A DNA stretch of 64,000 nucleotides from an uncultured Verrucomicrobiae bacterium (GCA_963706955.1 CAVPOC010000010.1:32001-96000), one strand, 5' to 3'. Positions 1-25,235 are shown, numbered from the stretch's first letter. A program made the numbers and translations. Notes: a model not told the origin generated them from the letters alone.

Positions 1-730
1 GTGCAGGGGCGGTATTTGCTGTGCCTGGAGCGGCTGCTGCGGCAGCTGCGGGGGCGGCCCCGGCATCCTGGACGAGGACTTTCTCAGTTGCCTGTAGTTC
101 CTTTTGCGTCCAAGGTTCTGTTCGGTCCTTTGTCTGCTCGCGGATCTTGGCGACGAAGTCTTTGGTGATGGGCGGCGCTTTGTTGCCCCACTCGTTTCGC
201 ACGTAAGTAAGGACAGCAGCGATTTGTTCATCCTTGAGCACTTTACCCCAGGGGGCCATCACATTGTTGAACTGCTCGCCTTTCACGGTCACCGCTCCGT
301 GGAACCCGTGCAGGACGATTTTGACGATGTGATTATCGCCATGCCAGTCCTGCGCGAGCACCCATTCGCTCCCGGCGAGCGGAGGAAACTGACCGGCTAC
401 GCCCAGCCCTGTCTGCTGGTGACAAACGGCGCAGTTCTGGGTGAAGAGACGCTTGCCGATAACCATCGGATCGGGCGCGGCGGCCGCGCCGCCGGTTCCG
501 GCGCCGTCCCAGGCCACTCGAGCCGGATTGAAGACATTCACTCTGAAACCTCCGCTATTCCAAAACAGATACCCCGCACCCAGAAATGCAAGAGCGAGGA
601 AGCTGATAATCAGCCAGGTTGGCAGCAACTCCGCTCCTTCACGGGACGCGTTGGATTCGCGTAGCAGGTCAACGTGCTGTTGCACGAGATCCTCGTCCTG
701 AGCTCTTTCATTTGTCGGTTTGTCGATCAC
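1..730 (-). CDS. Membrane-anchored monoheme cytochrome c (CcoP/class I-like), 3' end runs off the window
   Basis: Not in the ORF track because it has no stop in the window. Manual translation from GTG 730: TM helix WLIISFLALAFLGAGYLFW, then GKRLFTQNCAVCHQQTGLGVAGQFPPLAGSEW...NNVMAPWG (CxxCH plus distal Met) and an Ala/Pro tail. Confidence 0.85.
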   Translation of the reverse strand, partial: MIDKPTNERAQDEDLVQQHVDLLRESNASREGAELLPTWLIISFLALAFLGAGYLFWNSGGFRVNVFNPARVAWDGAGTGGAAAAPDPMVIGKRLFTQNCAVCHQQTGLGVAGQFPPLAGSEWVLAQDWHGDNHIVKIVLHGFHGAVTVKGEQFNNVMAPWGKVLKDEQIAAVLTYVRNEWGNKAPPITKDFVAKIREQTKDRTEPWTQKELQATEKVLVQDAGAAPAAAAAAAPGTANTAPA

Positions 731-734
731 GGCT

Positions 735-1358
735 TTACTGAAGGGGTTCAGCTTCGGGCAGAGTGTAGTCCCGCTTCAGAGAAAGAAGATATGCTACAAG
801 CAGCCGCGCCTCTTCGCTAGGGACGATTTCGTAACCGGTCGCGGGCGCGTAGCGGCCAGTTAGCCCAGTGACGGCATTGGCACTCTGCTGGCCGACAATC
901 TTTCGATTTTGATAGAGGTATCGATACGAAGGCATGTTCGACCCTGGCGTAATCATGGCAGGTTCGTAGAGGTGTTGGTGGAACCAATTTGCATCACTTG
1001 ACCTCAGCGCAACATTGGTCAAGTCGGGTCCAATGCGCAGATTCCCCAAGAATGCCGGATTCTCGCGCATGTAGTCGCGCGCCACGGTCGGGCGTGGGCC
1101 AAGCTTCTTTTCAACATCCGTCGAGAAAGCTCCGGAGCGTACCTGTTGAGTGTGGCAGGAAACGCAGCCGTTGGCCGCATAGACGCGCTGTCCGGCCGCA
1201 GCGAGGCCGGAGAGGGGTGGCGGATTGCTATCTCCCGTATTCTCATCAACTGCCGGCTGCATGCGGCCGAGGTGGAGATAAGAATAGCCGACAATACCAA
1301 ACCAGGCGGCGGTGAAGACCGCGAAAATTCCAAACACGAGCGTGGACAATTTGCTCAT
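735..1358 (-). CDS. ccoO: cbb3-type cytochrome c oxidase subunit II-like monoheme cytochrome c
   Basis: N-terminal TM helix; GQRVYAANGCVSCHTQQVR, RIGPDL and PGSNMPSY are typical CcoO/FixO motifs; overlaps the ccoN-like stop. Confidence 0.88.
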   Translation of the reverse strand: MSKLSTLVFGIFAVFTAAWFGIVGYSYLHLGRMQPAVDENTGDSNPPPLSGLAAAGQRVYAANGCVSCHTQQVRSGAFSTDVEKKLGPRPTVARDYMRENPAFLGNLRIGPDLTNVALRSSDANWFHQHLYEPAMITPGSNMPSYRYLYQNRKIVGQQSANAVTGLTGRYAPATGYEIVPSEEARLLVAYLLSLKRDYTLPEAEPLQ

Positions 1359-2770
1359 ACGCTCGCCGGCTCAGAAACAGTTAGACGCGAGCGCGAGGGT
1401 TCAGGGAGAGAACTGGCCTCAAGCAAATTGCGAATGAAAACGATGGCAAAGGCAATCGTCCCGGCGAAAACCGCTACCGCTCCCAGTGCGCTCATCACGC
1501 GAAAGGGAAACACCAGCGAAAGCGAACTCATGAAGTTCACATTCAGATCATTCAGCGCGAAGCCCTGAATCAGACCGCCCAACGTCAGGCAGACGAACAT
1601 TGTCCCGGCTCCGCAAACAAAGAGCCAAAAGTGCCAGGGAACGCACCGCGAGGAAAAATCCGCTCCGGTTAAGCGCGGCACTACATAATAGAAAGCCCCA
1701 AAAAGCGTCATGCTGAGAAATCCCAGCATGAGCATCACGTGCTCGCCGGTCGTATAGTCCGAGAAATGCGTCACTACCGCAAGAATGGGAGTGGCCGCTC
1801 CTTGGAGAACAACGCACACAAAACAAACCAGTCCCACGACGGTGAACAAGACATCAGGTGTATGGGGTTTGGTCCGTGCGCTCAAGGTGCCAAAGGTATT
1901 GATGCCAATAATCGTTGCCGGAATGAGCATCATGATGTCCGCCGCGACACTCGCACTCACCAGCCACGCGGGCACGGGGCCACCGATCAACTGCCTCACG
2001 CCCATCCAGCCGCCAAGGAAGGCAAGAAGCCAAAACGCCAGAACGCTCGAAGGATAGGCTCGCACGGGCCGTTGGGCAAAGTGCGGAACCAGATAATAAA
2101 CGGCACCGAGAACGATCGGCACCAGCCAGAGCCAGACGAGCGCACCAAAGAACCAACTTGCGATCGGACCTTGAGCCGAACCCTGCACCGGATACCAAAT
2201 GAGGAGCATGTTGGCGGTCGCGTACAACCACGGAAAACAGAGAAAAGCCGCGAGCAAATACCACTGCGACACGTAAAGTCCCTCGCGAGATCGGTCGCGA
2301 AGCAGGAATAGGCTCCACACGCCGATACAAACATAGGCAACGAGCAGAACGGCCGCCCCCGCGCCGGGGAATTCCAAACCCCTCACCGCATTCCCATCAC
2401 CGGCGAGAATCCCGCAAATGCCAAGAAGCACACCGAAATTCCAAAATGCGCCGGCGGTCAGCAGAAGCCGTTCGGAACCGAGAGCCGTCCGTCCGAGCTG
2501 AGCCAGCAACCAAAAACCAACGCCCATTCCGGCCTGCGACGCCCACCCATACCACAACGAGTTCTCCGCCGCCGCCTGAATTCTTCCGAAGGTCAACCAG
2601 CCAGATCCGTCTAGTAACGACGGCATCACGAGCTTCCACGCTGCCAGGCAACTCAGGAATGATCCAATGACCAACCAAAATATTGCCGAGCCCAAAAACA
2701 TGAGCACGGGGAAACGCAAGGCTTCGCGATGCTCCTGGTCTTGTATTTTAGTGACGATTGGTGGGTTCAT
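1355..2770 (-). CDS. cbb3-type oxidase subunit I (CcoN) homologue lacking the canonical metal-ligand histidines
   Basis: 471 aa from ATG 2770, about 12 hydrophobic segments; CcoN-like motifs WLTFGR, LYVSQWY, YYLVP..AQRPV, HFSDY, YYVVPRL, HFWL; His ligands substituted (see findings). Confidence 0.8.
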   Translation of the reverse strand: MNPPIVTKIQDQEHREALRFPVLMFLGSAIFWLVIGSFLSCLAAWKLVMPSLLDGSGWLTFGRIQAAAENSLWYGWASQAGMGVGFWLLAQLGRTALGSERLLLTAGAFWNFGVLLGICGILAGDGNAVRGLEFPGAGAAVLLVAYVCIGVWSLFLLRDRSREGLYVSQWYLLAAFLCFPWLYATANMLLIWYPVQGSAQGPIASWFFGALVWLWLVPIVLGAVYYLVPHFAQRPVRAYPSSVLAFWLLAFLGGWMGVRQLIGGPVPAWLVSASVAADIMMLIPATIIGINTFGTLSARTKPHTPDVLFTVVGLVCFVCVVLQGAATPILAVVTHFSDYTTGEHVMLMLGFLSMTLFGAFYYVVPRLTGADFSSRCVPWHFWLFVCGAGTMFVCLTLGGLIQGFALNDLNVNFMSSLSLVFPFRVMSALGAVAVFAGTIAFAIVFIRNLLEASSLPEPSRSRLTVSEPASV

Positions 2771-2813: not shown

Positions 2814-3376
2814 TCATAGATTGGCCGTGGCTTGCGTTGCTGGATTGCTAGCCGGTGTGGGCGCTGCGGCGGGCGACGCGATGCTGCCGGCGAGGCGGCG
2901 GGCGCGGGCGACGCGGCCGGTGACGCCGCAGGCGAGGCCGGAGGTGCCGCGACTGGTGAAGCTGCGGGCGCTGCTGTCGGGGCAGCCGCCGGTGAGCCTA
3001 CAGGTGAAGCTGCGGGCGCTGCCGTCGGGCCAGCCGCCGGTGAGGCTGCGGGCGATGGAGCTGGAGTGGCGATGGGGCCTGCCGCCGTTGGCTTTTTGGA
3101 GTTCAGTTCCACGATGGCGAGTTCCATGGCCCGTTCGATGGGGATCTGCACCGTGCCCTTCGCTTTATCGACCCAGGCGTAGTTTTGAAGCTTCTGGGCG
3201 TTTTCGGCTTCAAGCTCCTGATGAGCCTTGGCCCGTTCAGCGGCGCGCGCGGCATCTTCATCGGGTGCAGGCGCGAATCCCAGCAGGAGCCTCACCGCTA
3301 TCACGAAAAGTAAGAGCAGGAGAAATCCGCCGGCGAGGACGAGCCACAATGGTCTGGAGTGGGCGGCGGAGCTCAT
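2814..3376 (-). CDS. actG: ActG-like single-TM subunit with Ala/Pro-rich tail; apparent frameshift near 2880
   Basis: ATG 3376 overlaps the actF TGA; TM helix then YAWVDKAKGTVQIPIERAM, a motif typical of the small gene after actF; ASPAA repeats continue in another frame (ASPAAAPTPASNPATQATANL*) to TGA at 2814-2816. Confidence 0.62.
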
Positions 3377-4572
3377 CAGTTCTTCAGGGCGATCGACTTT
3401 CCGAGACGCGGATCGCGCGCCGGAAAGAGCGAAGAGTCTCCGAGTCGCTTCAGAAAAACAGCGGCCAGCGTGCAACCGATGGCAACCAGGCTGAAAAAGT
3501 CGAGTGGATTTGGCCGAACTCCCGCGACGTGCAAGACGGGAAGCACAACGATATAGATGTCAAGCATGTGCATCAGCAGGATCCAAACCGCCATGCCGCA
3601 GAGAAAGGTCGGTGTCTTCTTGGCACGTTGGAAGAGCAGCAAGAGAAATGGGACGAAGAAATGCCCGACCACCATGAATTGGCTCAGATACCACCAGCTC
3701 GCGGTATTGCGCCGCAGGAAATAGACAGTCTCTTCGGGGATGTTCGAATACCAGATCAGCATATACTGGCTGAAACCGATGTAGGCCCAGAAGATCGTAA
3801 AGGAGAGCATCAGCTTACCCATGATGTGGTAATGCTCCAGGTTCACCACCTGCTGCAGATAGCCCGCGCCACGCAGCGCGGTCACGATCAAGACCAGCAC
3901 GCACATTGAGCTGAGCGCGGTTCCGGCGAAAATGTAAACGCCCCACATCGTGGAAAACCAGTGGTAGTCCAGCCCCATTAACCAGTCGACGGCAGCAAAA
4001 GTGAGACAGACCGCGAAAGGAATGGCACTGGCAAAGGTCACCCGACGATTGAACACCGTGTAAACCGCGGCCCCACTGCTATCCTGGGCAATCGAGAACG
4101 TTCGCAGGAGCGTCGAGGAGGCCACAAAGAAGATGAAGTAGAGACTCGCCCTGATATAAAAGAAGGGCACATTAAGATAGGCGGCCTTCTCGACCAAGAG
4201 AGGATCATGGGCGTTCTCAGGCTGCATCCATTCCCAGAGCGTCGGACCGACAGCAAGCAGTGGAATAAAGAGCAGCGCCATGATCGCAAGAAGGCTACCC
4301 ATATTTTCCAACTGCCGGCGGACGACCACGCTCCATTCGGCATCCACCGCATGATGGACCAGCGTCCAGAAGAGTCCTCCCATGCAGATGGTCAGGAAAA
4401 ACGTGTAGGCAAAGAGATAGGAGAAAGCGAACTGCCTGGGATCGATGAATGCCCCAACCAGCACCACCACAAACGCCAGCACCGCCATGCCAATCAATCC
4501 AAGAAAACGGCCCCCGACATGCTTGTAGTCGAAAAACTCCGGCTGCGGATGTTGGCTGAACGATTGACTCAT
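3376..4572 (-). CDS. actF: Alternative complex III subunit F (ActC paralogue, integral membrane)
   Basis: Multi-TM; DWLMGLDYHWFSTMWG, FWAYIGFSQYMLIWYSNIPEET; position in act operon. Confidence 0.9.
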   Translation of the reverse strand: MSQSFSQHPQPEFFDYKHVGGRFLGLIGMAVLAFVVVLVGAFIDPRQFAFSYLFAYTFFLTICMGGLFWTLVHHAVDAEWSVVVRRQLENMGSLLAIMALLFIPLLAVGPTLWEWMQPENAHDPLLVEKAAYLNVPFFYIRASLYFIFFVASSTLLRTFSIAQDSSGAAVYTVFNRRVTFASAIPFAVCLTFAAVDWLMGLDYHWFSTMWGVYIFAGTALSSMCVLVLIVTALRGAGYLQQVVNLEHYHIMGKLMLSFTIFWAYIGFSQYMLIWYSNIPEETVYFLRRNTASWWYLSQFMVVGHFFVPFLLLLFQRAKKTPTFLCGMAVWILLMHMLDIYIVVLPVLHVAGVRPNPLDFFSLVAIGCTLAAVFLKRLGDSSLFPARDPRLGKSIALKN

Positions 4573-5262
4573 CTATTGGGACTCCAGTTTGACGCGTTCC
4601 GCCGGAGGCACGTCGCCCAATACGGCTCCGCCTTGCGACTTCTGCAGCGCTCGCAGGTAGGCGATGATCGCCCAGCGGTCGATCACCTGAATGCGGTCAC
4701 CATAGCCGAGCATAGTGTTCTTGCCGTGCGTGATCGTGTTGAAAATCTCCCCGTCAGCCATGGTGCGAATGCGATCCTGAAGCAGACTTTGCACCGTATT
4801 GAGTCCAAATTTTTGCGCGATGCCGTTTCCCGCTCCGGTGGCGCCGTGACAGACTGCGCAATAGATGCCAAATCGCTGTTGGCCCCGCCCCATCACCGCA
4901 GGGGAGATCTGAAAGGGAACGCCCGTGCCCCAATTCTCGCCCATCTTTCCGGTGTCGATGTAGGTGGGCGAACTCGAGAAGATGATCTGCTGGTATGGCC
5001 CTGTGGCCTGGCCTACCGAACCGTCCACCAGCTTGTGCATCGGCATCGCATAGCCCAGCGGCACCGTGCCCTCGACCGGCGGGCGCGCGGCGCGTCCATC
5101 CGCAAAGAACTCACTCGGTGTTTGCGGCTTCACTTTGGGTTGGCGATCCATGTCGGGAAAGATCTCGATCGGCGCCTGGCCACCCTTTTGCCCACGTAGC
5201 CCAGCCATTGCCAGAACGACAAGCCCCAGAAAGGCAAATGCGATGAAGAAGTATTTCAGCAT
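4573..5262 (-). CDS. actE: Alternative complex III subunit E (monoheme cytochrome c)
   Basis: DMDRQPKVKPQ..SEFFADG...RPPVEGTV, CAVCH, DRWAIIAYLRALQ. Confidence 0.9.
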   Translation of the reverse strand: MLKYFFIAFAFLGLVVLAMAGLRGQKGGQAPIEIFPDMDRQPKVKPQTPSEFFADGRAARPPVEGTVPLGYAMPMHKLVDGSVGQATGPYQQIIFSSSPTYIDTGKMGENWGTGVPFQISPAVMGRGQQRFGIYCAVCHGATGAGNGIAQKFGLNTVQSLLQDRIRTMADGEIFNTITHGKNTMLGYGDRIQVIDRWAIIAYLRALQKSQGGAVLGDVPPAERVKLESQ

Positions 5263-5332: not shown

Positions 5333-5899
5333 CTAGTCCTCGTGAACCCTGGTGATATGGCGTGCGCCGAGAGATTCGAGGAACTCGCGAACTTCGCTTT
5401 CGCCGAATTTGGGATCTCTCTTTTCAACCACGCAAAAGAACTTGTCCTCGCTGACTCGCTTAAACCTCTCCCAGTTAAACATGGGGTGATTCAGACGCGG
5501 TAGGCCGTTCATCATCAGCATTCCGAAGGTCGCGGTGAAGGCCGAGATGAGCACCGTGAATTCGAACATGATCGGAAAAAAAGCCGGCACGGTGAAAAGA
5601 TTTGTCGGCTTGCCCATGACGATCAGCGGATAAATGAACGAGCTCGGCACGAACTGGATCGCCACCGCCGAAATAAAGCCGATCAGACCACCCACGAAGA
5701 CGATCTTGCCAAGCAGCGACCGCTTCAGCCCCATCGCTTGATCCATGCCGTGGATCGGAAAGGGCGAAAAGACATCGAAGCGCGTGAAGCCGGCATCGCG
5801 CATCTGCTCGGCAGCGTGGAATAACTCGCCCGCGGTATCAAACTCCGCGGCGATACCGTAGAAGGGTGCTTCGGGATTTCCGGCGACGTGGGCAGACAT
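5333..5899 (-). CDS. actD: Alternative complex III subunit D (DUF3341-type)
   Basis: FSPFPIHGMDQAMG, two TM helices, PAFFPIMFEFTVL. Confidence 0.9.
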   Translation of the reverse strand: MSAHVAGNPEAPFYGIAAEFDTAGELFHAAEQMRDAGFTRFDVFSPFPIHGMDQAMGLKRSLLGKIVFVGGLIGFISAVAIQFVPSSFIYPLIVMGKPTNLFTVPAFFPIMFEFTVLISAFTATFGMLMMNGLPRLNHPMFNWERFKRVSEDKFFCVVEKRDPKFGESEVREFLESLGARHITRVHED

Positions 5900-7486: not shown

Positions 7487-10400
7487 TCATGATCCTCGGC
7501 GCCGTGATTCGGCGCCGTGACCATGGGGTTCACCGTTGGCCATCCCGACCCTGCTCGCGTCTGGCATTTTTGAATTCGGGTTCTTGATTCGCGCGAGGTA
7601 ACTCACCCGGGGTAGGGTATTCAAGTACTTCAGCATCACATAGCCGCGATCGCTCTGGCGCGTTCTCGACACCGGGCTTTGCAGGTTTCGGATATTACCG
7701 AAAACAAGCGAGTCGCTCGGGCAGGCTTGCTGGCAAGCCGTCTTGAACTCGCGAATCGGCACGTCATTCTTGTTGCGGGGCCCTGCCTCCACCAAACGGG
7801 CAATCTTGGCCTCTTCAATGCGCTGAATGCAAAAGGTGCACTTCTCCATCACGCCGCGCATCCGGACGGTGACGTTCGGGTTCTTAGCCATTTGCAGGCT
7901 ATCTGCCATGCCCTTCCGAGCTACCGGGCCAGCATACAACTGATCAAGCGGTCTTTGATTGTAATCGAAGTAGTTAAAGCGGCGCACCTTCCAAGGGCAA
8001 TTATTCGAACAATACCGCGTCCCGATACAACGATTGTATGCCATAAGGTTCAAGCCATCCTCGCTATGAACGGTGGCATTGACCGGACACACGGTCTCGC
8101 AAGGAGCGTTCTCGCAGTGTTGACACAGCATCGCCTGCGCGAGCATCTCGGGATCTTCCGGTTCGCCGGCGAAATAGCGGTCAATTCGAATCCAAGCCAT
8201 ATCGCGGTTTCGACGAACTTGCTCCTTGCCGACGACCGGAACGTTATTCTCTGCTTGGCAGGCAACGACGCAAGCGTTGCAGCCAAAGCAGGTATTCAAA
8301 TCGACGGTCATTCCCCATTGCTCGTTCGCCGTCAGCTGCGGGTGCGAATAGAGCGAGATGTTGGGAGGGATGTGGCTATCCATCCCCATAGTTTGAGCAA
8401 ACTTGGGATCATGCTGGTAGCGCTCGAGAGTTCCCTCTCGGAACAAGTCTCGGCCCTCCATGCTGCGGTGCTCCTGTGTTTGCGCCAGAGGATACCGCTC
8501 TTTGGTGACCTTCACCTGCACTCCCGTCAAGAAACGCTCGGCATCGGTTGACCGGAGTGGATACGCATTGAATCCAACTCCTTCGAAGAGTGCCGAGACA
8601 CCGCTGCGGCCATATCCCAGCGCCAGGGAGATCGAATCCTCGGCGTGGCCGGGCGCGACATAAGCGGCCGCCGTGACAGAAGTTCCACCGGGGGACTTGA
8701 TCTCGATGAGGTCGGCCACCACGTCGAAATCGATATTGTTGCCCAGTTGCTCGGCCACCTGGTAGATCGGACCGAAATTGTTGGCGCGGATGCCGAGCTT
8801 CTCGGCGGTCGCGGGACTAACCAGCGCGACGTTGTCCCACGTCACCTTGGTCTCAAAGTCGGGAGTTTCCTGAAGCCAAGAATTGTTTGCGTATCTGCCG
8901 TCGTCCACGCTGTTGCTCTGCAGGAAGACTAGCTCGATGCCTTCGGCGAGTGGCTTAATGTCCTTTATTGGCGCTGCTGCCTGACCTCCCGAAAATGAAA
9001 GGGGCGCCGCTGGCCATTCACTACCGGGAGCAAAGCCAACTCGAAGGACCGAATTCCATTTTTCCGGATCGGCATTAAACGTCTGCGCAAAAGTTTCCTG
9101 AATGAGAGCGGGCCCTTGAGGTTTCGGTCGCCCCGCGAGCTGCGCGAGAATCTCCAATTCACTGACGCCATTCCACAGCGGCAAGATCATCGGCTGTACT
9201 ACCGAGTAGGAGCCGTCGTAAGCGCGCACGTCGCTCCACATCTCCAGATAATGCGCAGCAGGGATGTGCCAGCGACAAAGCTTGGATGTTTCGTCCTCGA
9301 ACAACCCGAGGCGCACCGACTGCGAGACCTTCCCGAGAAGGTCAGAGAAATTCAAATCGGAAGGTGCGTTGTAGGCGGGATTGCCACCAAGCACAAAGAG
9401 CGTCTTTATCGACCCGGCTTCGATCCCAGCTTTCAGGTCGCCGATAGTGCCGGTCGGCTTCTCATCGGTCGCCGCGCCAAGGATGGTGGCGCCGATATTG
9501 CCAAGCGCCTGGTTGATCGCATGGCCAAGAATCTGCACCCAAACGGGCTGCTGCTCTCCGACAAAGACGATACTCCGTCCTCGGCTTGCCAGGAGATCGT
9601 TGGCACACCCAGAGAGCCAGGCCTCATCGAAGGTCGCGTCCATCTTTGGACAGGCCTGAAGAATCGACGCCAGCTCCGAGTCGCCGGCCGAAGCAGACAG
9701 GTGGCTGCCAAGCTGCCGAGTGAATTCGCCAATCAGAGAGGCTTTGCAGCGATAACGATGGTCCGCTAGGCCGCCGGTGCCGGTGTAGTGATTCTCAACG
9801 ACGTAGAGGCGATTCATCGGGGCGCCCTTTTGGTCGGGGCTGCGGCGCTGGAAGAAACCGTGGGCGAAGCCGACGCCTTTGTCGCTCTGGTTGAGAAACT
9901 CGCTGTCCAGGGCGACAATCACATCGGCCTGCTGAAAATTCGGCAGCAGACGGACACCCTGCCCGAAAGAGGCCGAAACCGCCCCCTGTGCCAAAGTATT
10001 TCCGAGCGGCTCATACTCGCACCAAATCATTCCCGGAAATTTTCCCTCGAGTTCCGCGCGGAGCCTGTCTCGCGTGGGAGAGTTATTGCGCTCCACCAGA
10101 AATGCCACACCCTCGGCAGACGCACTCAGACCCTTAAGCAAATTGTCCAATGCTTCAGGGCGAGCCTCGACACCGTTTTCCTTTATCGTCCTGGAACGAT
10201 TCGGATCGTAGAGATCCAATATGCTCGCTTGAGCGAAAGCGTCTGTCCCGCCATTGCTGAAAGGATGAAGGGGATTGCCTTCGATTTTCGTCGGTCGGCC
10301 GTCGACGGTGCTGACAATCAGAGGCATCGCGCCCTGCCGCAACGGCATCGCTGTTGCGTAAAAAAGGAACTTTCCGGGAATGGTCCACTCGACCCCCTTA

Positions 10401-10648
10401 TTGAACGGAACTACAAACGCGTCAGGACGGCGGCAACCGGCGAGTCCAATGCCTGCGAGTGACATCGAAGCGCCCAGGAGCTTCATGAAGTCACGCTTGG
10501 TAAGTCCGCTATCTTCATAGACATCGGCCCCACGGGGAAATTCTCGCCGGAGAACCGTTTCGAAACCGGGGGAGTTCTCGAGTTCGGCAAGGCTGCGCCA
10601 GATCGTCGGCCTTTCAGGCCTTGGCGGATGATGGAAAACGCGCTTCAT
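7487..10648 (-). CDS. actB: Alternative complex III subunit B (molybdopterin-oxidoreductase-like plus Fe-S domains, Tat lipoprotein)
   Basis: Start MKRVFHH overlaps the actA stop; WRSLAEL, Tat-like TKRDFMK...LAGC, GRPTKIEGNPLHP; Fe-S motifs CFGCNACVVAC, CQHCENAPCETVCP, CIGTRYCSNNCP, CTFC..CQQACP. True 3' end may extend to 7414 (see findings). Confidence 0.95.
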   Translation of the reverse strand: MKRVFHHPPRPERPTIWRSLAELENSPGFETVLRREFPRGADVYEDSGLTKRDFMKLLGASMSLAGIGLAGCRRPDAFVVPFNKGVEWTIPGKFLFYATAMPLRQGAMPLIVSTVDGRPTKIEGNPLHPFSNGGTDAFAQASILDLYDPNRSRTIKENGVEARPEALDNLLKGLSASAEGVAFLVERNNSPTRDRLRAELEGKFPGMIWCEYEPLGNTLAQGAVSASFGQGVRLLPNFQQADVIVALDSEFLNQSDKGVGFAHGFFQRRSPDQKGAPMNRLYVVENHYTGTGGLADHRYRCKASLIGEFTRQLGSHLSASAGDSELASILQACPKMDATFDEAWLSGCANDLLASRGRSIVFVGEQQPVWVQILGHAINQALGNIGATILGAATDEKPTGTIGDLKAGIEAGSIKTLFVLGGNPAYNAPSDLNFSDLLGKVSQSVRLGLFEDETSKLCRWHIPAAHYLEMWSDVRAYDGSYSVVQPMILPLWNGVSELEILAQLAGRPKPQGPALIQETFAQTFNADPEKWNSVLRVGFAPGSEWPAAPLSFSGGQAAAPIKDIKPLAEGIELVFLQSNSVDDGRYANNSWLQETPDFETKVTWDNVALVSPATAEKLGIRANNFGPIYQVAEQLGNNIDFDVVADLIEIKSPGGTSVTAAAYVAPGHAEDSISLALGYGRSGVSALFEGVGFNAYPLRSTDAERFLTGVQVKVTKERYPLAQTQEHRSMEGRDLFREGTLERYQHDPKFAQTMGMDSHIPPNISLYSHPQLTANEQWGMTVDLNTCFGCNACVVACQAENNVPVVGKEQVRRNRDMAWIRIDRYFAGEPEDPEMLAQAMLCQHCENAPCETVCPVNATVHSEDGLNLMAYNRCIGTRYCSNNCPWKVRRFNYFDYNQRPLDQLYAGPVARKGMADSLQMAKNPNVTVRMRGVMEKCTFCIQRIEEAKIARLVEAGPRNKNDVPIREFKTACQQACPSDSLVFGNIRNLQSPVSRTRQSDRGYVMLKYLNTLPRVSYLARIKNPNSKMPDASRVGMANGEPHGHGAESRRRGS

Positions 10649-11310
10649 CGGTGACAACCTCCGCAAGTCGTCGGCGGATTGACGTCCCACTCCTCCTTAA
10701 ACTTTGTTCCCAGTTGATGCTGTTCCTGGCTGGAGGCCGGTTTCCACGCCAGGTTAAAAACCTGGTCCGGCGGCCGGAGGTGGTTTTCCGGTGCGCGGTG
10801 GCAATCGAGGCACCATTTCATACTTTGGGACTCGTGCTGAAATACGACCTTCATGTCGTTAACGGCGCCGTGGCAGGAATAGCAGCTCACACCCCGATTT
10901 ACATGGACCGCATGGTTGAAGTAGGCGTAGTCGGGAACTCGATGAACCTTCACCCAGTTGACTGCCGGCCCATCGCCTTTGCCCCCGTTCCACGCAGCGC
11001 GCACCGCGTCCAATCTTGGATTCTGCGCCTGGACCTGCTGGTGACATCCCATGCACGTCTGCACGGTGGGCACATTTGAATGGGAAGCTATCTCCACGAA
11101 ACTATGGCAATACCGGCAGTCCATACCAAGCTGCTGCACGTGAAGATCATGTTGGAAAGGCACCGGCTGTGTCGGCTCGTAACCGACGCGCGTATACTTG
11201 GGAGTGAAATAGTAAGTGATGCCGCCGGTTATGGCCGCCCCGAGCACAGCAACACACACCGTCAGCTTCCAAGGAAGCTGATTCGTCCACTTCGGGAAGA
11301 AATTTGCCAT
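10645..11310 (-). CDS. actA: Alternative complex III subunit A (pentaheme cytochrome c)
   Basis: N-terminal TM plus five CxxCH (CRYCH, CMGCH, CYSCH, CLDCH, CGGCH); QPVPFQHDLH. Confidence 0.95.
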   Translation of the reverse strand: MANFFPKWTNQLPWKLTVCVAVLGAAITGGITYYFTPKYTRVGYEPTQPVPFQHDLHVQQLGMDCRYCHSFVEIASHSNVPTVQTCMGCHQQVQAQNPRLDAVRAAWNGGKGDGPAVNWVKVHRVPDYAYFNHAVHVNRGVSCYSCHGAVNDMKVVFQHESQSMKWCLDCHRAPENHLRPPDQVFNLAWKPASSQEQHQLGTKFKEEWDVNPPTTCGGCHR

Positions 11311-11463
11311 CGTTGAGAGGCGCGTTAGCGGTTACTTGCGGCTGACTACCGACGAATTGCGGGAAACTAGATTCCACAATAGGAATGGCAATTGTTTTTT
11401 TTCGATCAAAAATCCAAAAATATGCCTATTTCCGAGCGAAGAGTGGCGCGTGACGGGTCGCTC

Positions 11464-11913
11464 ATGAACCGCGCAGTTCTTCTCTGCCTTTTGCTGGTGG
11501 CTGGCTTCGCGCTCGCGCAGGAAACAGCCCAAGTCACCCTACCATCGGTAACGTTGAGCGTAGCTGGCAAGGCCGTGACGGCGGAAGTGGCCGATGATGC
11601 CCAGGAACGCAGCATGGGTCTGATGTTCCGCGAACATCTTGCGCGAAATGCCGGAATGCTCTTCGTGATGCCGAAGCCCGAACGCGCTTCGTTCTGGATG
11701 AAGAATACGACCCTGCCGCTCTCGGTCGCCTACATGAATTCCGCCGGGGTAATTCTGGAGATTCATGATCTTCAGCCTCTGGATGAGAAACCTGTTCCCA
11801 GCGCCTTCCCGAACATCGCCTACGCGCTCGAGATGGAGCAGGGATGGTTTAATGAAAACGGCATCCTCGCAGGCGATCGGATCCAAGGCCTTCCGGCATT
11901 CGGCGGACAGTAG
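11464..11913 (+). CDS. DUF192 family exported protein
   Basis: Signal peptide MNRAVLLCLLLVAGFALA; EVADDAQERSMGLMFR, GMLFV, FWMKNTTLPLSVAY, YALEM. Confidence 0.88.
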   Translation: MNRAVLLCLLLVAGFALAQETAQVTLPSVTLSVAGKAVTAEVADDAQERSMGLMFREHLARNAGMLFVMPKPERASFWMKNTTLPLSVAYMNSAGVILEIHDLQPLDEKPVPSAFPNIAYALEMEQGWFNENGILAGDRIQGLPAFGGQ

Positions 11914-12091: not shown

Positions 12092-15000
12092 CTAGCGCGC
12101 AGGCACGTTATTACTTAACACGCCTTCGCCCGGGGCGGCGCCCACCTCTTGGAGATCGCCTTCTCCTCGCTTGAAGAAGGCGATCTTATCCAGATGCCGC
12201 TCCTGGAAATACTCCATATAGATATAAAAAACTGGAGTGCAAAACAGGGTCAGAACCTGTGCGACAACGAGGCCCCCGACAATGCAAAGGCCCATCGGTT
12301 GCCTGGAGGACCCATCCGCGCCAAAACCCAATGCCATCGGAAGCGCACCGAAGATGGCGGCGAAGGTTGTCATCAGTATCGGTCGCACGCGTTCGATGGC
12401 AGCTTCGAGGGCAGCTGCTTCTACGCCCAGGCCTTCTCTCCGGCGCATGATCGCGAAGTCGACCAACATGATGCCGTTTTTCTTGATGAGGCCGAGGAGC
12501 AGAAAGAGTCCAATAAATCCGTAAAGGTCGAGCGGCATGCCGAAAAGCTGCAAGGTGGCGAGCCCTCCAAGACTGGCCACCGGGAGGGTCGAGAGCACGG
12601 TGATCGGGTGAATGTAGCTCTCGTAAAGAATTCCCAGAATGATGTACATCACGAAAATGGCAATGATCAGCAGAAAGATCATCGCTTTGACCGTCTCGAT
12701 GAATTGAGCGCTCGATCCTGCCGGCGCGCCGGCCACCGAACCAGGAATGATCTCCTTGGCCGCTTGCTCAAGTTCGTCCGTCGCAGTGCCTGCCGGAAAG
12801 CCCGGCTTGAGATTGTAGAAGATCGTTACCGAGGTGATTTGATTAATGTGACTGATGGACTCCGGTCCGGTCTTGACGTGCGGACGCACCAACGAGCCTA
12901 GTGGCACGAGACCACCTTGCTGGTTCCGCACCCACAGCAGGTTTAAGTTGTCCAATCTTGCGCGTTGGCGATCGAGAAGTTCGAGGATGATCCAGTAAAC
13001 GTTGAGGGGAGTTTGAATCTGGCCGGTCATGCCTTGCGCGAAGGCGACGGCCAAGGTGTTCTCGATGTCCTGGACGTTCACGCCGTAGCTGTATGCCTGG
13101 TCACGCAAAATCTCTAACTCGAGGAAAGGGGTGTTCATTCGCATATCGCTTGAGACGCCGGTGAATCCCTCCGTCTTGCTCAAGCGTGCGATGAGCTTGC
13201 GTGCGGTATCGTAAAGCAATTCGGGGTCGGTACTGGTCAGCTGATAAGCGTAAGCACCCTGAGTGTTGGAGGTCGCGCCGGTATCGATGTTGAGGGTCGG
13301 ATATGGTTGCAACAGCGGAACTACGCCCGGAACCTGCTCTCGAACTTTAGCAACAATCCGCTGCGTGATTTCGGCGATCGGAGCGCGCTGCGCTTCGGGC
13401 TTCAGCAGAACGATGAAGAGACCCATCGACGTCGTGAGCTGATTGTTCTGCAATCCCGTTACGACAATAACCTGATCGACCCCGGGCTCGGCTTTCGAGA
13501 TTTCCATCAACTGCTTTTGATACGCCTGCATCTGGGCGGGTGACGTTCCCTCCGCCGCCAAGTAAACACCTCTGATCATTCCACTATCTCCCACGGGAAG
13601 GAATCCTTTGGGGATGACGAAGAACAGCCAGATGGTGCCGGCAAGAGAGAGCAACCAGATGAGAAGAGCGAGGCCCTTGCGGGCGATCATCCACTCCAGT
13701 GCCCGTTTGTAATTTGCTTTGAATGCCAGGAAATACTTGTTGAACCAACGCTGGTATCGATTCTCGCCCTCCGACTTTCGGAGCAGACGGGCGCAGACCA
13801 TCGGCGACACCACGATCGCGACCACCCCTGAAAAGATGATCGCGATCACGATGGTCACCGCCATTTCATGAAACATCCGGCCGATCAGCCCGGGCATGAA
13901 GACGATCGGGATGAAAATTGCTCCCAAAGAGAGGGTCATCGAGAGCACGGTGAAACTAATTTCCTTGGCGCCGAGCAGAGCGGCCAACGTCGCCGGCTTG
14001 CCCTCCTCAAGGTGGCGAACCGTATTTTCAAGGACGACCACCGCATCGTCGACCAGCAGGCCGACCGCGAGGGTCAGCGCCATGAGCGAGAGGTTGTCAA
14101 GACTATAGCCGAGCATCCACATCACGGCGAACGTCAAGAGCAAGGAAAGCGGAAGTGCCACGATCGGAATCGACGTCTCGCGCACCCGCCCGAGAAAGAG
14201 GAAGACGACCAGGACAACGAGGGCAAAGGCAATCAGGAGAGTCAACTTTACGTCATTGATGCTCTCCACGATCTGAACCGAATGATCGTAGTTAATGTAG
14301 GCTTCCACCGAGGCCGGAAGCGAAGGCTGCAGCCTCGCGAGGGTATCGCGCACGGCACGCGCCACATTCACATCATTGGCGCCCGGCGCCGGCGTCACCG
14401 CCACTACCAGCGACGCTGCGCGCGGCTTCATCCAACTCGTCCAGAAGTCGATGATGAGATACTGCTTCTGCAGGCCATCCACGGGCTTGGCGACATCCTT
14501 TACCCGCACAGGCGCGCCATCCTGATATCGGACGATGAGATCGTTGTAGTCCTCCGCGCGAAGAAGCTGACCCTTCGGATTAATAATGTACTGCAGGAAG
14601 TTTCCGTAAATCTGGCCCCCGGGAGTAAAGACGTTTCCCGTAGTTACGGAATTGGCCACATCGAGGACGGTCAGGCCTCGTGAAGCGAGAGCATTCGCAT
14701 CCATTTGGATGCAGACCGCGCGCGCCGACCCGTAAACCTGCGCATTGGAAACGCCCTCCAGCATCATCATGCGTTGAGCGACCATGTTGTTGGCGTAGTC
14801 ATACAGATCGCCCAACGTCAGGGTATCCGTTGCCATCGTGATGTAGACGATCGGCTGCGTGTTCGGATTTACCGTTTGGAAGCTCGGTGGCGCCGGCAAG
14901 TCGGTGGGAAGATTTCCCATCGCCCGCTGGATCGCCGCCTCCACCTCAGCCTCCGCCTGTCCCATGTCCTTGTTCAGAACGAATTGCAGGACGATGCTGC

Positions 15001-15265
15001 TCACGCCCTCTTGGTTGCGAGAGGTGATCAGGTGAAGCCCCTCGATCTGCATCATCTGAATCTCCAAGGGAGTGGAGATGTTGTTCGCCATGATTTGAGG
15101 GCTGGCACCCGGATAGTTGGTGGTGACGGCGATGACCGGATAGGCAACGTCCGGAAGCTCGCTAACCGGCAGCGAAAAATAGGCCGCGATGCCGAAAATC
15201 GCGGCCGAGATGGCGCACAGCGTCGTCATCACCGGCTTGCGAATGAACGGCTCGGATAAGTTCAT
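12092..15265 (-). CDS. RND efflux inner membrane transporter (MdtB/MdtC-like)
   Basis: MNLSEPFIRKPVMTTL, SLDNLSLMALTLAVGLLVDDAVVVLEN, KKNGIMLVDFA, RVRPILMTT. Confidence 0.92.
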   Translation of the reverse strand: MNLSEPFIRKPVMTTLCAISAAIFGIAAYFSLPVSELPDVAYPVIAVTTNYPGASPQIMANNISTPLEIQMMQIEGLHLITSRNQEGVSSIVLQFVLNKDMGQAEAEVEAAIQRAMGNLPTDLPAPPSFQTVNPNTQPIVYITMATDTLTLGDLYDYANNMVAQRMMMLEGVSNAQVYGSARAVCIQMDANALASRGLTVLDVANSVTTGNVFTPGGQIYGNFLQYIINPKGQLLRAEDYNDLIVRYQDGAPVRVKDVAKPVDGLQKQYLIIDFWTSWMKPRAASLVVAVTPAPGANDVNVARAVRDTLARLQPSLPASVEAYINYDHSVQIVESINDVKLTLLIAFALVVLVVFLFLGRVRETSIPIVALPLSLLLTFAVMWMLGYSLDNLSLMALTLAVGLLVDDAVVVLENTVRHLEEGKPATLAALLGAKEISFTVLSMTLSLGAIFIPIVFMPGLIGRMFHEMAVTIVIAIIFSGVVAIVVSPMVCARLLRKSEGENRYQRWFNKYFLAFKANYKRALEWMIARKGLALLIWLLSLAGTIWLFFVIPKGFLPVGDSGMIRGVYLAAEGTSPAQMQAYQKQLMEISKAEPGVDQVIVVTGLQNNQLTTSMGLFIVLLKPEAQRAPIAEITQRIVAKVREQVPGVVPLLQPYPTLNIDTGATSNTQGAYAYQLTSTDPELLYDTARKLIARLSKTEGFTGVSSDMRMNTPFLELEILRDQAYSYGVNVQDIENTLAVAFAQGMTGQIQTPLNVYWIILELLDRQRARLDNLNLLWVRNQQGGLVPLGSLVRPHVKTGPESISHINQITSVTIFYNLKPGFPAGTATDELEQAAKEIIPGSVAGAPAGSSAQFIETVKAMIFLLIIAIFVMYIILGILYESYIHPITVLSTLPVASLGGLATLQLFGMPLDLYGFIGLFLLLGLIKKNGIMLVDFAIMRRREGLGVEAAALEAAIERVRPILMTTFAAIFGALPMALGFGADGSSRQPMGLCIVGGLVVAQVLTLFCTPVFYIYMEYFQERHLDKIAFFKRGEGDLQEVGAAPGEGVLSNNVPAR

Positions 15266-15326
15266 CGCAGCGGAATGCCCACGGCTTGCGGCGCTGGCTC
15301 CGCACCCCGGAGTTGCCAAGCGACCT

Positions 15327-16475
15327 TCATTTCGCTTTCTCCGGCGTCGGCGACGGCGAAGGGGTCCTGCCGGGAAGAGGCGGCGGCGTCTGGAACGGCG
15401 TTGCACTAACTTTCATGCCGTCCTGGAGTCCGAGTTGACCCGCAGTCACCACATGGTCACCGGCGTTCAGACCTTTGGAAATGATCGAGGAGTCTGCATG
15501 GCGCTGCCCAAGCTCAACCTGATGCCGAGTTACCGTATTGTCGGAATTGACGACGAATACATACGGCCCTCCCTGGCCAATCATAACGCACTGGGAAGGT
15601 ATGACGATCGCGTCCTGGAGTGTCGTGAGAATCAGCTCAACATTGACAAAGAGTCCGGGCCAGAGGATGGCGTCTTTATTGGGCATTGTGGCGCGAAGGG
15701 AAAGCGTGCCTGTTCCGCTTGTGATAGCGTTGTCGATGAAAGTCATCTTGCCGGTAACCTTTTTGTCCGGCGCGCCAGGAATACTCGCCTGAACCGGCAA
15801 CTGTCCCTGGGTGAAATACTGCCGCACTTTGTCGAAGTCGTTTTCCGAAATGGTAAACTCGACGTAAATCGGGTCGATGGTCTGGATGTTGATGAGCTTG
15901 GTCGTATTAGCCGCAACAAGGTTGCCAGCGTCGACGAGATAAATCCCTGTCTTTCCATCGATCGGTGACGAGATCGTGCAGTATCCGAGATTTATTTGTG
16001 CGTTGGCCAGTTGACCCTCGGCAGTCAAGACGGCGCCTTGGGCCTGCAGCTGGTTAGCCTCCGCGGTTTGAAGGTCGGCAAGGTCGATCGTCTTCGTCTT
16101 GTAGAGCTCCTGTTGGCGCTGCAATGTCACCTGCGCGTTGGCCAGTTGCGCCTTTGCGGAATCGAGATTTCCCTCCGCTTCCTGCAAGGCTGCCTGATAG
16201 GGCGCGGGGTCGATCTGAGTTATCAAGTCGCCCTTCTTAACCGTTGCCCCTTCCTCGACTGCATAACGAAGAAGGATGCCTTCGACCTGCGCCTGCAGCG
16301 TGACGTCGGCAATCGTCACAACGTTGCCAAACGTGCCGATCGTCAGCGGCACGCTCTCGGCCGCGGCCATGGCAAACGTTACCGGCTGAAGAGGAGCTTG
16401 CGGCGTCGGCTTCTTTGCGCAGGAGGAAAAACCGATCACGAGCAACCAAAGAGCGAACGGGAGCTCGCATTTCAT
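15327..16475 (-). CDS. RND efflux periplasmic adaptor (MdtA-like MFP), lipoprotein
   Basis: Lipobox FSSC; IDPAPYQAAL, YCTISSPIDGKTG, DAILWPGLFVNV. Confidence 0.9.
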   Translation of the reverse strand: MKCELPFALWLLVIGFSSCAKKPTPQAPLQPVTFAMAAAESVPLTIGTFGNVVTIADVTLQAQVEGILLRYAVEEGATVKKGDLITQIDPAPYQAALQEAEGNLDSAKAQLANAQVTLQRQQELYKTKTIDLADLQTAEANQLQAQGAVLTAEGQLANAQINLGYCTISSPIDGKTGIYLVDAGNLVAANTTKLINIQTIDPIYVEFTISENDFDKVRQYFTQGQLPVQASIPGAPDKKVTGKMTFIDNAITSGTGTLSLRATMPNKDAILWPGLFVNVELILTTLQDAIVIPSQCVMIGQGGPYVFVVNSDNTVTRHQVELGQRHADSSIISKGLNAGDHVVTAGQLGLQDGMKVSATPFQTPPPLPGRTPSPSPTPEKAK

Positions 16476-16784
16476 TCGGTGGCCTTGGTAGTTGCCGAAA
16501 CGCTTGCTGTCAATCGCAGGCAAGCGCCAGACCACCTCCTCGTCTCCGTTGCGACAAACAGCCAAATGTTGCAACGGCACGGCACTTAGGAAGACTTCGC
16601 CTTAGAGTGCCCATAACATGAAGTCCAAGAGAAGCCGGAAGAGCGGTGAGACCAGCCTTCGGTCTAGCCTGGCGCCCAAACGCGGCGTCTCAGATGATTG
16701 AGGGACTTCAAGACAAGTGCCTCGAAACTCCCCACTATGCCACCTCCTGGCGAGGAAGCTATCCAGCTAACGCTGTGTGAGGAT

Positions 16785-18417
16785 TCAGTTCACCAACTCG
16801 ATCTCACTTGGGCGCCAGCTCTTGTCAAAGAAAGACTCGAGCGGGCTGTAGAGGCGCAGGATCGTGAACCACCCCTTCCCCGGCATTGTTTGGATCCAAT
16901 TGCCGCGCTTGATGCCCTCGGGCTGTTCGGGGGCGAAGTAGATTGTCGTGGAGCCGTCATCATTCGGCTCGGCGGCGGGCGACGGATAGCTCTGGCTGCC
17001 GGCGCGCGGGTAGCGCTGCGGCGTATCGAGCATCGAGCGTGACTGATTGTCGTACACCGTGAACGACCAGAATGATCGCGCGGGAATGTCCTTGGGCAGG
17101 GTGACCTTGTAGGTCTTGGCGCCGTCGTAGGGATTACCGTTGGAGTCCAGGAAGCCCATCAAATACTGCGAGCCGACGTCGGGGATGCGCATGATCATCC
17201 CCGGCGAATCGAACGTGTAGGCGTAGTAGAACGCCGTCCGCGAGTCGAGGGTCCGAGCGCCCGTGGGCGGAAGCGGTTTAAACAAGCCCTCTTTGGTGAA
17301 CTCCGGCGGCGGCGTTTCAAAGAACGCTCCACCTTCCCAAAGCATCGTGCCCCACATCGAGCCGGGATAGTAGGACCAGTCGGGATGCATCACGGCGTAC
17401 CGCCAGTTCAGCACGCGTCCAACCGCATTGCCGACGGCGGCAGCGTCGGTGAGGATCTTCTTCATTCGCTCGTCCGGCTCGAAAGGCTTACCCTTCGCGA
17501 TGCCGATCGCCGCCAACTGGCCGGCAAGTTCCACATCGTAACTGGTCGCCGGCTCCTCCTGCACGTTCTCGTTAATCATCTGGAAAAATGTGAAATCGCT
17601 GGGAGGGATCGTATTAAACGATTTTCCGCTCGCTTCGATGAACTTGGTCTCAGGGACGGGCGGATTCGCCTCGAGGCGGACTTTGCCTTCCAGGGCTGTT
17701 GCAATGCTCGTCCCAAAGCCGCCGGGCGCATATGGGTAGATCTTGAGATACTTCTTGATCAACTCGACGGTTGGCTTCGGATCGTTATCCACCAGGAATG
17801 AGCGGGCGGCATAGAGCACACGGTTTGTCTTGGAGTGTGCAATAAAGAAGCCGCCCTCAGGCAGGGGACCGTTATAATCTGGCGGAACGAGAAGGTATTT
17901 GCCGCCCTCTCCTCGATCCGGTCCGGGAAACCCAACGTCGACAATCCAGCTGAACCACATGTCGTTGATGGTGCCCAGCCCCTTCGGCGGCTGCTCGATC
18001 ACCATCGGCCCCTTGCTGAGATCAATAACACCCAGGTAGTAAATGGTATCGGCGTTAGCCGTGAGGAAAAGTGACTTGGCGTCCATCAGGTCGGAGAAAA
18101 TGACAATCGAGTTATCCTCCGCACCAATACTCAAGAAGCCCTGGCGGATCGCGTATGCGGAGGCGCCGCGGAAACTGTTGTTGTAGGCGTTCAGACCGCG
18201 GGTGAAGTCCAGCGCGTCGCGAACCTTCTCGGCGGTTTCCACGGTCGGCGCGCCGTCTTGAAACTCGAGTGTCCCAATGCGCGTCTCGACTTTGTCCGGC
18301 GTGAGGATGGACGCTGGAATCTCGGTGGCTGGCTGTCCGGACGCTTTCAGCAACAATGAAAAGCGCGGCGCCAATCAGCGCGCCACAAAAAGCGAGGAAG
18401 CTATCGATGCATTTCAT
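16785..18417 (-). CDS. DUF1254/DUF1214 family exported protein; probable frameshift near 18340 separates the signal peptide
   Basis: VETRIGTLEFQDG, LFLTANADTIY, GPDRGEGGKYLLVPPDY, FWSFTVYD, WFTILRLYSP; signal-like MKCIDSFLAFCGALIGAALFIV in the adjacent frame. Confidence 0.85.
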
Positions 18418-22352: not shown

Positions 22353-22376
22353 GTGGACTCGCCTACTTGGCTCTGC

Positions 22377-23675: not shown

Positions 23676-23747
23676 AAGTCGCTTCGTATTCGGGTGAGGG
23701 AACAATGTCAATGGCCTGAAAAGGCCACCTGCTGCAACCATTCTAAT

Positions 23748-25138: not shown

Positions 25139-25235
25139 TCTTAAAAATGATGTCGGAACGGCCCCGCATTCAAGGGAGATTCCGCGAAAGAGTGAAACTC
25201 GCTACGCCGCGACACCCACCCCACGAATCGACGAC

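Follow-up and report, generated by a model that had tools for sequence, protein, structure and literature searches.

A CcoN homologue without haem and copper ligands, retained under selection in alternative complex III operons of Verrucomicrobiae, is a likely cofactor-free scaffold

Introduction

The metal-binding histidines are, to our knowledge, the defining and almost invariant feature of the haem-copper oxidases. In CcoN, the catalytic subunit of the cbb3-type (C-family) enzymes, six histidines bind haems b and b3 and CuB. Here, we describe ccoN′, a gene of an uncultured soil verrucomicrobium related to the Terrimicrobiaceae (closest named records, Terrimicrobiaceae and Chthoniobacterales), whose product lacks all of these ligands and which lies in the operon of an alternative complex III (ACIII). 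The gene is located in a 64,000-nucleotide stretch of assembly GCA_963706955.1 (G000:C10:32001-96000), which is called the window below and to whose first letter coordinates refer.

Among described systems, the cbb3 oxidases (CcoNOP) of Pseudomonas stutzeri (3MK7) and Pseudomonas aeruginosa (8SMR) resemble the module encoded here in the fold of subunit I, in the ccoN-ccoO-ccoP-like gene order, in the haem c of CcoO and in a predicted contact with a CcoP-type anchor. The module differs from them in that CcoN′ is devoid of the ligands of haems b and b3 and of CuB, the cross-link tyrosine and the equivalents of R57 and E122, in that neither ccoS nor ccoG was found in the 92.5% complete genome (ccoS is also absent from the operon), and in that the third subunit is a monohaem protein with a c552-type domain. 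The ACIII-linked C-type oxidase of Verrucomicrobiota occupies the same operon position; its orthologues at 34-48% identity to CcoN′ keep the six histidines, the tyrosine and ccoS, whereas CcoN′ lacks six of the six histidines and Methylacidiphilum proteins lack five. The linkage itself is known from verrucomicrobial methanotrophs and Opitutaceae, and the gene is regarded as encoding a functional complex IV in the available parts of PMC8498564 (citing Refojo 2010), PMC8170126, PMC13608581 and 10.1101/2024.01.15.574570. The review PMC8498564 and the preprint 10.1101/2024.01.15.574570, in the same parts, count the methanotroph gene as a cbb3 or high-affinity terminal oxidase.

Supercomplexes of ACIII with A-family oxidases have been described for Rhodothermus marinus (ACIII-caa3) and Flavobacterium johnsoniae (ACIII-aa3). 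As in the present operon, the act genes are followed by an A-family oxidase that needs a cytochrome c link to CuA, which in those systems is an additional c domain carried by subunit II or by ActA (PMC5928083, available in part). The present operon has an extra c domain on neither CoxB nor ActA, which carries five haems, and a catalytically dead cbb3 module instead stands between the two gene blocks. A further precedent comes from CcoS, which is needed for haems b and b3 and for CuB in CcoN. Rhodobacter capsulatus without CcoS assembles a CcoNOQP complex, c-type subunits included, that lacks these three cofactors and is inactive (available parts of PMC8267372, citing Koch 2000 and Kulajta 2006). 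An apo-CcoN scaffold therefore has experimental precedent, although the R. capsulatus complex is an engineered dead end, whereas the state of CcoN′ is natural, fixed in sequence and selected.

Reading frame and fold of CcoN′

The ccoN′ gene starts with ATG, runs from 2770 to 1355 on the minus strand and encodes 471 residues with zero internal stops. Its stop codon overlaps the start of ccoO in an ATGA at 1358-1355. The protein matches Pfam COX1 (E 6.9e-46), the only solved structures that match it at E<=0.001 are cbb3 subunits I (5 sequences), and its ESM Atlas matches are COX1 clusters only, mainly from Verrucomicrobiota. Against the closest NCBIfam model, TIGR00780 (ccoN), it scores 123.8 bits with a cut-off of 583; two six-histidine orthologues, at about 246 bits, also fall below that cut-off. 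An AlphaFold2 model computed from a 31-row alignment (mean predicted local distance difference test score, pLDDT, 86.9; predicted template-modelling score 0.88) contains 12 long helices following an N-terminal one. The model superposes on 3MK7 with a template-modelling (TM) score of 0.88 and a root-mean-square deviation of 2.2 Å, and the match to the nitric oxide reductase 3O0R (TM score 0.81) is below that to the cbb3 subunit. The full-length CcoN scaffold read from the sequence in the initial annotation is thus borne out by the open reading frame (ORF), the domain match and the predicted fold.

In this assembly, the frame of the preceding actG-like gene continues into ccoN′ without a stop, which generates a 734-residue open frame. 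An in-frame ActG-CcoN′ fusion was considered and rejected. In short-read contigs (X5, X6 and X15) of two of the four DNA runs and of one RNA run, an additional base is present at 2878/2879; no covering contig without this base is shown at supported depth in X5, and the two genes are separate in relatives. An assembly error is thus the most likely source of the fusion, and the 471-residue call is right. In some strains, the Pro/Ala tail of the actG-like gene lacks 48 or 9 bases (2976-3023; 2961). No indel was found within the ccoN′ ORF in short-read contigs of near-identical strains, and a promoter and terminator scan yielded no promoters above chance.

Loss of the cofactor ligands

Ligand positions were assigned in the numbering of P. 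stutzeri CcoN (3MK7) from a pairwise alignment and from multiple alignments with ligand-complete orthologues. The H207 column is a gap in the pairwise HMMER alignment and was settled as G209 by the multiple alignments.

1355..2770, minus strand: ccoN′, 471-residue CcoN-fold protein without ligands for haems b and b3 and for CuB
2567..2569, minus strand: Ala68, position of the low-spin haem b ligand H60
2144..2146, minus strand: Gly209, position of the CuB ligand H207
2012..2014, minus strand: Gly253, position of the cross-link Tyr251
1991..1996, minus strand: Arg259-Gln260, positions of the CuB ligands H257 and H258
1736..1744, minus strand: Glu343-His344-Val345, positions of H345 (haem b3), a spacer residue and H347 (haem b)

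None of the six ligand histidines is kept (0/6), and the cross-link tyrosine is also replaced. The motif changes aligned by eye in the initial annotation, including the glycine at the tyrosine position and the single shifted histidine, were correct. Having lost all six ligands, the protein is predicted to carry no such cofactor and to be incapable of O2 or NO reduction; that it contains no haem b, haem b3 or CuB and has no oxidase activity is nearly certain. Judged by sequence, CcoN′ is a catalytically dead pseudoenzyme derived from the C-family oxidases and not a functional member of that family. Membership among the nitric oxide reductases (cNOR, qNOR and newer families), which combine haem ligands with FeB bound by His/Glu or with a variant metal centre, is not indicated either, as no ligand column contains histidine and no substitute is conserved.

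The surroundings of the empty sites have changed with them. At the positions of R57, E122 and E125, residues of the periplasmic cavity of CcoN (available parts of PMC3431322), CcoN′ has Q65, R130 and E133, and one of the three is kept. The glycines G213, G347 and G431, invariant in all 77 intact (six-histidine) copies surveyed below, are replaced by larger residues in dead copies (orthologues with at most one ligand histidine, 54 in the survey) and by W, L and A in CcoN′, as would be expected if empty pockets were filled. Of 172 columns conserved at >=90% in intact copies, 63 remain conserved at >=80% in dead copies and 109 are relaxed. Most of the 63 are Gly, Pro or Trp or lie in loops (G62-R63 and G263-P265-P267-W269 are examples); the 109 include the ligands, the pocket glycines, T217, Y253 and Y317.

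Binding of haem or metal through substitute ligands (E343, H344, R259 or a cysteine), with a new catalytic or sensing role, appears quite improbable. E343 and H344 do lie on the haem b3/b helix, a related clade (11 of 143 orthologues) retains the histidine pair of low-spin haem b only, and ligand changes are reported for some nitric oxide reductase families (10.1101/2021.10.15.464467, available in part). However, the residues that replace the ligands vary by lineage with no substitute set in common, and L39 is the only new residue common to the dead copies. E343 occurs in 13/54 dead copies and H344 in 7/54 (and in 14 of the 60 closest database hits), so that neither is conserved and both were rejected as candidate ligands. 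The R57 and E122 equivalents and conserved glycines were lost too, and ccoS disappeared in step with the ligands. CcoN′ is not histidine-free, since the non-ligand H380 is kept in 52/54 dead copies.

It is very improbable that CcoN′ conducts protons or other ions, or that it pairs with an active oxidase subunit I as the dead partner in an asymmetric dimer. Ions could leak through a 12-helix body whose pockets are empty; Y225/Y226, S242, N291 and E133 are retained in CcoN′, and ActF, a non-catalytic ActC paralogue, is a membrane pseudo-subunit kept within ACIII (available parts of PMC5928083). ActF has a different fold and partners an active paralogue, while no ligand-complete CcoN was found in this genome. 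T217, Y253 and Y317 are near-invariant in intact copies, are kept in only 11, 0 and 19 of the 54 dead copies and are V, G and F in CcoN′; we take these three to be proton channel positions of cbb3 oxidases. The initial annotation had offered scaffold, dimer partner and ion channel as possible roles, and only the scaffold gains weight, from the retained haems of the partner subunits and the predicted anchor interface described below.

Repeated loss in the ACIII-linked family

A survey of 41 relatives, 301 genomes of the phylum and a genome-contig scan gave 168 distinct CcoN-like proteins including CcoN′, 143 of which have act genes in the fetched locus; the sample was picked by similarity to CcoN′ and is no census. 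Among the 143 ACIII-linked orthologues, 77 keep six histidines, 1 keeps five, 11 keep the low-spin pair only, 21 keep one and 33 none. The dead copies (54 of 143) stand beside act genes in every dead-copy locus examined, across the class. The initial annotation had asked whether such copies are conserved next to act genes, and had reckoned with close orthologues that keep the histidines beside a neutrally decaying copy. Orthologues at 44-48% identity do keep them, but the dead copies are not decaying neutrally.

A profile built from 27 degraded copies retrieved, among its best 150 hits, 71 proteins without ligand histidines and 4 with all six; dead forms are thus very diverse. Eleven of the 120 closest database hits are otherwise intact proteins without one or two CuB histidines, and some members of the clade that retains only the low-spin pair (the b-only clade) have since lost the haem b ligands too. 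The loss therefore looks stepwise. The b-only loci L047, L080, L199, L201, L203, L207, L208, L212, L215 and L216 keep only the two low-spin haem b histidines, some contain truncated ccoS remnants, and their CcoO has a long Pro/Ala insertion. This clade likely represents an intermediate or a haem-b relay form.

Losses were counted on a concatenated ActC-F tree of 113 loci (FastTree only), on which the intact or degraded state switches 17 times, a count that gives no direction. The tree contains 12 independent contrasting pairs of intact and degraded loci on supported (starred) branches and 16 on all branches. We infer loss and not regain, a regain of six ligands being implausible; gene replacement within operons may be an alternative to repeated loss. 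A tree of the CcoN-like proteins themselves, with only 5 changes and long-branch warnings, was set aside for the ActC-F tree.

Methylacidiphilum proteins belong to the degraded group. In the NCBI database, WP_039721928.1 of Methylacidiphilum kamchatkense and WP_242522757.1 of Methylacidiphilum infernorum both bear the name cbb3 subunit I; their six ligand columns read S, E, S, H, F and V, with five of the six histidines gone. CCG92522.1 of Methylacidiphilum fumariolicum falls into the same 90% cluster as the aligned Methylacidiphilum proteins and is placed by cluster, not by its own alignment. Other six-histidine CcoN-like families (L115-L117, L119, L134 and L136) are unlinked to act genes and have unusual motifs (YYMHQG, FYVHNA). 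An act-ccoS-ccoNOP operon with all six histidines (L189) occurs in a record titled Isosphaeraceae, outside Verrucomicrobiota, where transfer or mis-binning is possible.

Co-loss of ccoS

In intact operons, a 60-75-residue ORF before ccoN resembles FixS/CcoS. All three such ORFs tested match PF03597 and TIGR00847, two above the Pfam cut-off and one above the TIGR cut-off. With a profile built from 24 ORFs of intact operons, ccoS was found between actF and ccoN in 76/76 six-histidine operons, a proportion that is partly by construction, and in the one five-histidine operon (1/1). In the same actF-ccoN interval, to which absence refers, it was found in 0/54 operons with one histidine or none and in 0/10 b-only operons. 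A C-terminal ccoS remnant persists in 8 degraded operons of one clade. The co-loss holds in 12/12 independent pairs (sign test, p 0.0005) and is the strongest independent sign that the CcoN′ protein is cofactor-free yet can assemble.

Selection on ccoN′

Ratios of nonsynonymous to synonymous divergence (dN/dS) were calculated with the Nei-Gojobori method on pairs that share lineages. CcoN′ and three congeners gave 0.082-0.094, rough ratios at a dS of 1.6-2.0, and the comparison among orthologues that the initial annotation had proposed thus indicates purifying selection. The ratios were 0.05-0.29 (median 0.14) in 15 ligand-less pairs, 0.05-0.06 in two b-only pairs and 0.02-0.13 (median 0.05) in intact pairs (12 measurable of 14). 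Constraint on the dead copies is relaxed about threefold relative to intact copies yet strong, and their evolution is not neutral.

This relaxation, together with assembly indels nearby and in the second coxA, is what speaks for a decaying pseudogene or an assembly artefact. That explanation is already refuted and keeps a negligible probability, as dN/dS is far below 1, the short-read contigs of near-identical strains contain no indel in the ORF, and the substitutions of CcoN′ are found again in many genomes, among them in full-length orthologues that are 88-91% identical to it. With the fold kept, purifying selection, ligand-less orthologues beside act genes and no common substitute ligands, the retained pseudoenzyme proposed in the initial annotation stands.

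Partner subunits and the predicted complex

735..1358, minus strand: ccoO, monohaem cytochrome c; CVSCH and axial Met142 intact, WGSKRT-type motif changed to LGNLRI
1..730, minus strand: CcoP-like third subunit, weak FixP_N-like anchor and Thermus c552-type monohaem domain; continues past the window edge to its end at G000:C10:31834

The ATGA overlap and the intact haem motif and axial methionine agree with the translational coupling of ccoN′ to an intact CcoO that was noted initially. Beside dead CcoN copies, CcoO keeps CxxCH in 51/51 cases and the methionine in its column in 45/51, and the third subunit keeps CxxCH in 53/53 and the methionine in 52/53. By their motifs, the partner cytochromes would thus stay redox-competent. 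Relaxation is found elsewhere in CcoO. Residues Y67, T106, M107 and T109, which align to the WGSKRT motif of solved CcoO, are near-invariant with intact CcoN and relaxed with dead CcoN; T109 is Thr in 51/53 intact and 1/45 dead operons, and about 11 of 12 independent pairs agree. The serine of this motif presumably helps to coordinate the haem-bridging Ca2+ of CcoN.

The membrane anchor of the third subunit has a weak FixP_N-like (CcoP-type) match (E 0.05), and the haem domain resembles both Thermus c552 (E 3e-20) and the c domain tethered to Cu nitrite reductase (E 3e-22). Cytochrome c552 donates electrons to a CuA site. In a three-chain prediction, the third subunit scored 0.74, the best of 3 controls scored 0.01, and the score dropped to 0.01 when CcoN′ was swapped out. 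The mark used for this score is passed by 116/157 solved and 2/215 mismatched pairs and is only roughly applicable here (own alignments, three chains). Runs agree in >=67% of contacts, and the partner pLDDT is >=73. The anchor is predicted to pack on CcoN′ residues 234-241 and 263-290, a surface that includes G263-W269, of which G263, P265, P267 and W269 are conserved at 91-100% in dead copies. Assembly of a CcoN′OP-like module is, taken together, highly probable.

Electron route from ACIII to CuA

On the minus strand, the operon reads actA-B-C-D-E-F, actG-like, ccoN′, ccoO and the monohaem cytochrome c gene, followed outside the window by coxB-coxA-ctaA-ctaB-coxC-sco-DUF420. The actABCDEF set of an ACIII is present upstream of ccoN′, with actF assigned by position and weak ActC similarity.

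2814..3379, minus strand: actG-like gene, single-helix protein with a Pro/Ala tail (E 0.25 only against solved ActG); no ccoS between it and ccoN′
3376..4572, minus strand: actF, by position and weak ActC similarity, no family match
4573..5262, minus strand: actE, monohaem cytochrome c
5333..5899, minus strand: actD, PF11821
5900..7327, minus strand: actC, NrfD family
7487..10690, minus strand: actB, ORF bounds; the true start probably makes it slightly shorter
10645..11310, minus strand: actA, pentahaem cytochrome c without an extra monohaem domain

The genome contains three COX1 loci, namely ccoN′, the coxA of the operon and a caa3-type locus on contig C3 that is frameshifted. The operon CoxA has intact A1-type motifs, and CoxB has the CuA motif and no c haem. 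No bd oxidase was found in the 92.5% complete genome. The C3 locus (G000:C3:740413-741776; L002, also L242) encodes an A-type oxidase whose subunit II bears a c haem; the coxA lies in three frames, possibly through assembly error, and a cytochrome b gene follows about 3 kb downstream.

The explanation that we favour, at a probability of roughly 0.6, is that CcoN′ is a selected, cofactor-free scaffold and likely part of an electron relay from ACIII to CuA. The ancestral operon would have encoded an apparently active ACIII-linked cbb3 oxidase, with the six-histidine orthologues as its ancestral, probably active form, and the cbb3 catalytic core would have become dispensable where an A-type oxidase took the electrons. 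CcoN′ would then be the membrane scaffold to which CcoO and the anchor of the CcoP-like tethered cytochrome c552 are bound, and CcoO and c552 would relay electrons from ActE of ACIII to the CuA site of an A-family oxidase (in this operon, the aa3 enzyme whose genes come next). That the module forms such a cytochrome c link is probable in its own right. The absence of an extra c domain on CoxB and ActA favours the connector role in this operon; in caa3 lineages such a role is no more than a possibility. An A-type-scoring COX1 (E<=6e-128) is present in 46/47 dead-copy genomes, the exception being a genome of 87% completeness whose locus sits at the end of a contig, and in 40/49 intact-copy genomes; in 4 of the 49, the ACIII-linked copy is the only COX1 match. 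For G113, G163, G178, G307, G148 and G313, the oxidase class follows from genus and score and not from alignment. Of 20 A-type loci fetched from dead-copy genomes, 19 have the A1 motif GHPEVY and 19 a CuA subunit II.

Several points weigh against this explanation. A-type oxidases are also common beside intact copies, as the 40/49 shows, and kin are not independent. The CuA subunit II carries its own c haem in 16 of the 19 cases (caa3, mostly unlinked to the operon), so a missing c domain is not a general reason for keeping the module. The haem domain of the third subunit is not confidently placed in the three-chain prediction, and the complex score itself may reflect likeness to solved cbb3 structures. 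Retention of the CcoO haem without haem b as acceptor is unexplained unless electrons run from ActE through CcoO to c552. The roughness of the dN/dS ratios adds to these points. Finally, RNA libraries gave short contigs (97-100% identity) inside the ccoN′ ORF in three of four runs (X16, X18 and X19), which lack a silent-region control and are not counted as proof of expression.

We regard as rather unlikely an alternative in which the dead module contributes to the structure or assembly of an ACIII supercomplex, or buffers electrons or branches them off to other acceptors, and its c haems are not obligatory for electron transfer to CuA. The module is kept beside act genes even where an unlinked caa3 has its own c domain, R. 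marinus ActE can reduce caa3 directly (available parts of PMC5928083), and in one dead-copy locus, L135 (G169:C1:953100-973000), the act genes that lie upstream of the ligand-less ccoN are interrupted by a nosZ-like gene cluster. A purely structural role, however, needs no near-perfect conservation of both haem c motifs, and this operon offers no other c domain for CuA. In another operon with a ligand-less ccoN (L046, G024:C2), no coxB, coxA or coxC match was found, ctaA, ctaB, sco and DUF420 are kept, and a caa3 oxidase is located elsewhere (L227).

Other genes of the locus

A DUF192 gene (11392-11913, plus strand), usually divergent from actA, is kept beside the operon in many Chthoniobacterales loci. 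By sequence appearance, two RND-type efflux gene sets (12092-16580 and 19191-25169, minus strand) lie on either side of a 529-residue ORF (16785-18374), and a cluster of urease structural and accessory genes with a urea ABC transporter lies downstream of the oxidase operon, outside the window (G000:C10:14256-24308).

Implications

No description of a ligand-less CcoN was found in the full-text literature searched, and many subscription papers and supplements lay outside its scope, so that a prior mention is possible; the available parts of PMC4013037, PMC10556555 and PMC8361435 contain nothing on ligand loss. A subunit I that lost all ligands repeatedly, together with its cofactor-loading factor, and is still selected constitutes a natural experiment on the other roles of the cbb3 body, and the connector model adds a third way in which ACIII may be joined to an oxidase.

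On balance, we lean towards a general form of this proposal. In Verrucomicrobiae, ACIII-linked cbb3 oxidases would have become a "ghost complex IV" devoid of cofactors at least a dozen times independently and stepwise, with CuB, haem b3 and ccoS lost first and low-spin haem b later; the shell with its two c haems would be a dedicated connector between ACIII and A-family oxidases, and the "high-affinity cbb3" of Methylacidiphilum and of many soil and freshwater Verrucomicrobiota would not be an oxidase. Databases name these proteins cbb3 subunit I, and ecological inference is affected. In the present genome, in which neither a bd oxidase nor an intact cbb3 was found, a reader of the annotation would be misled into assuming high-affinity respiration. 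The claim is open to direct tests in cultured strains of Methylacidiphilum.

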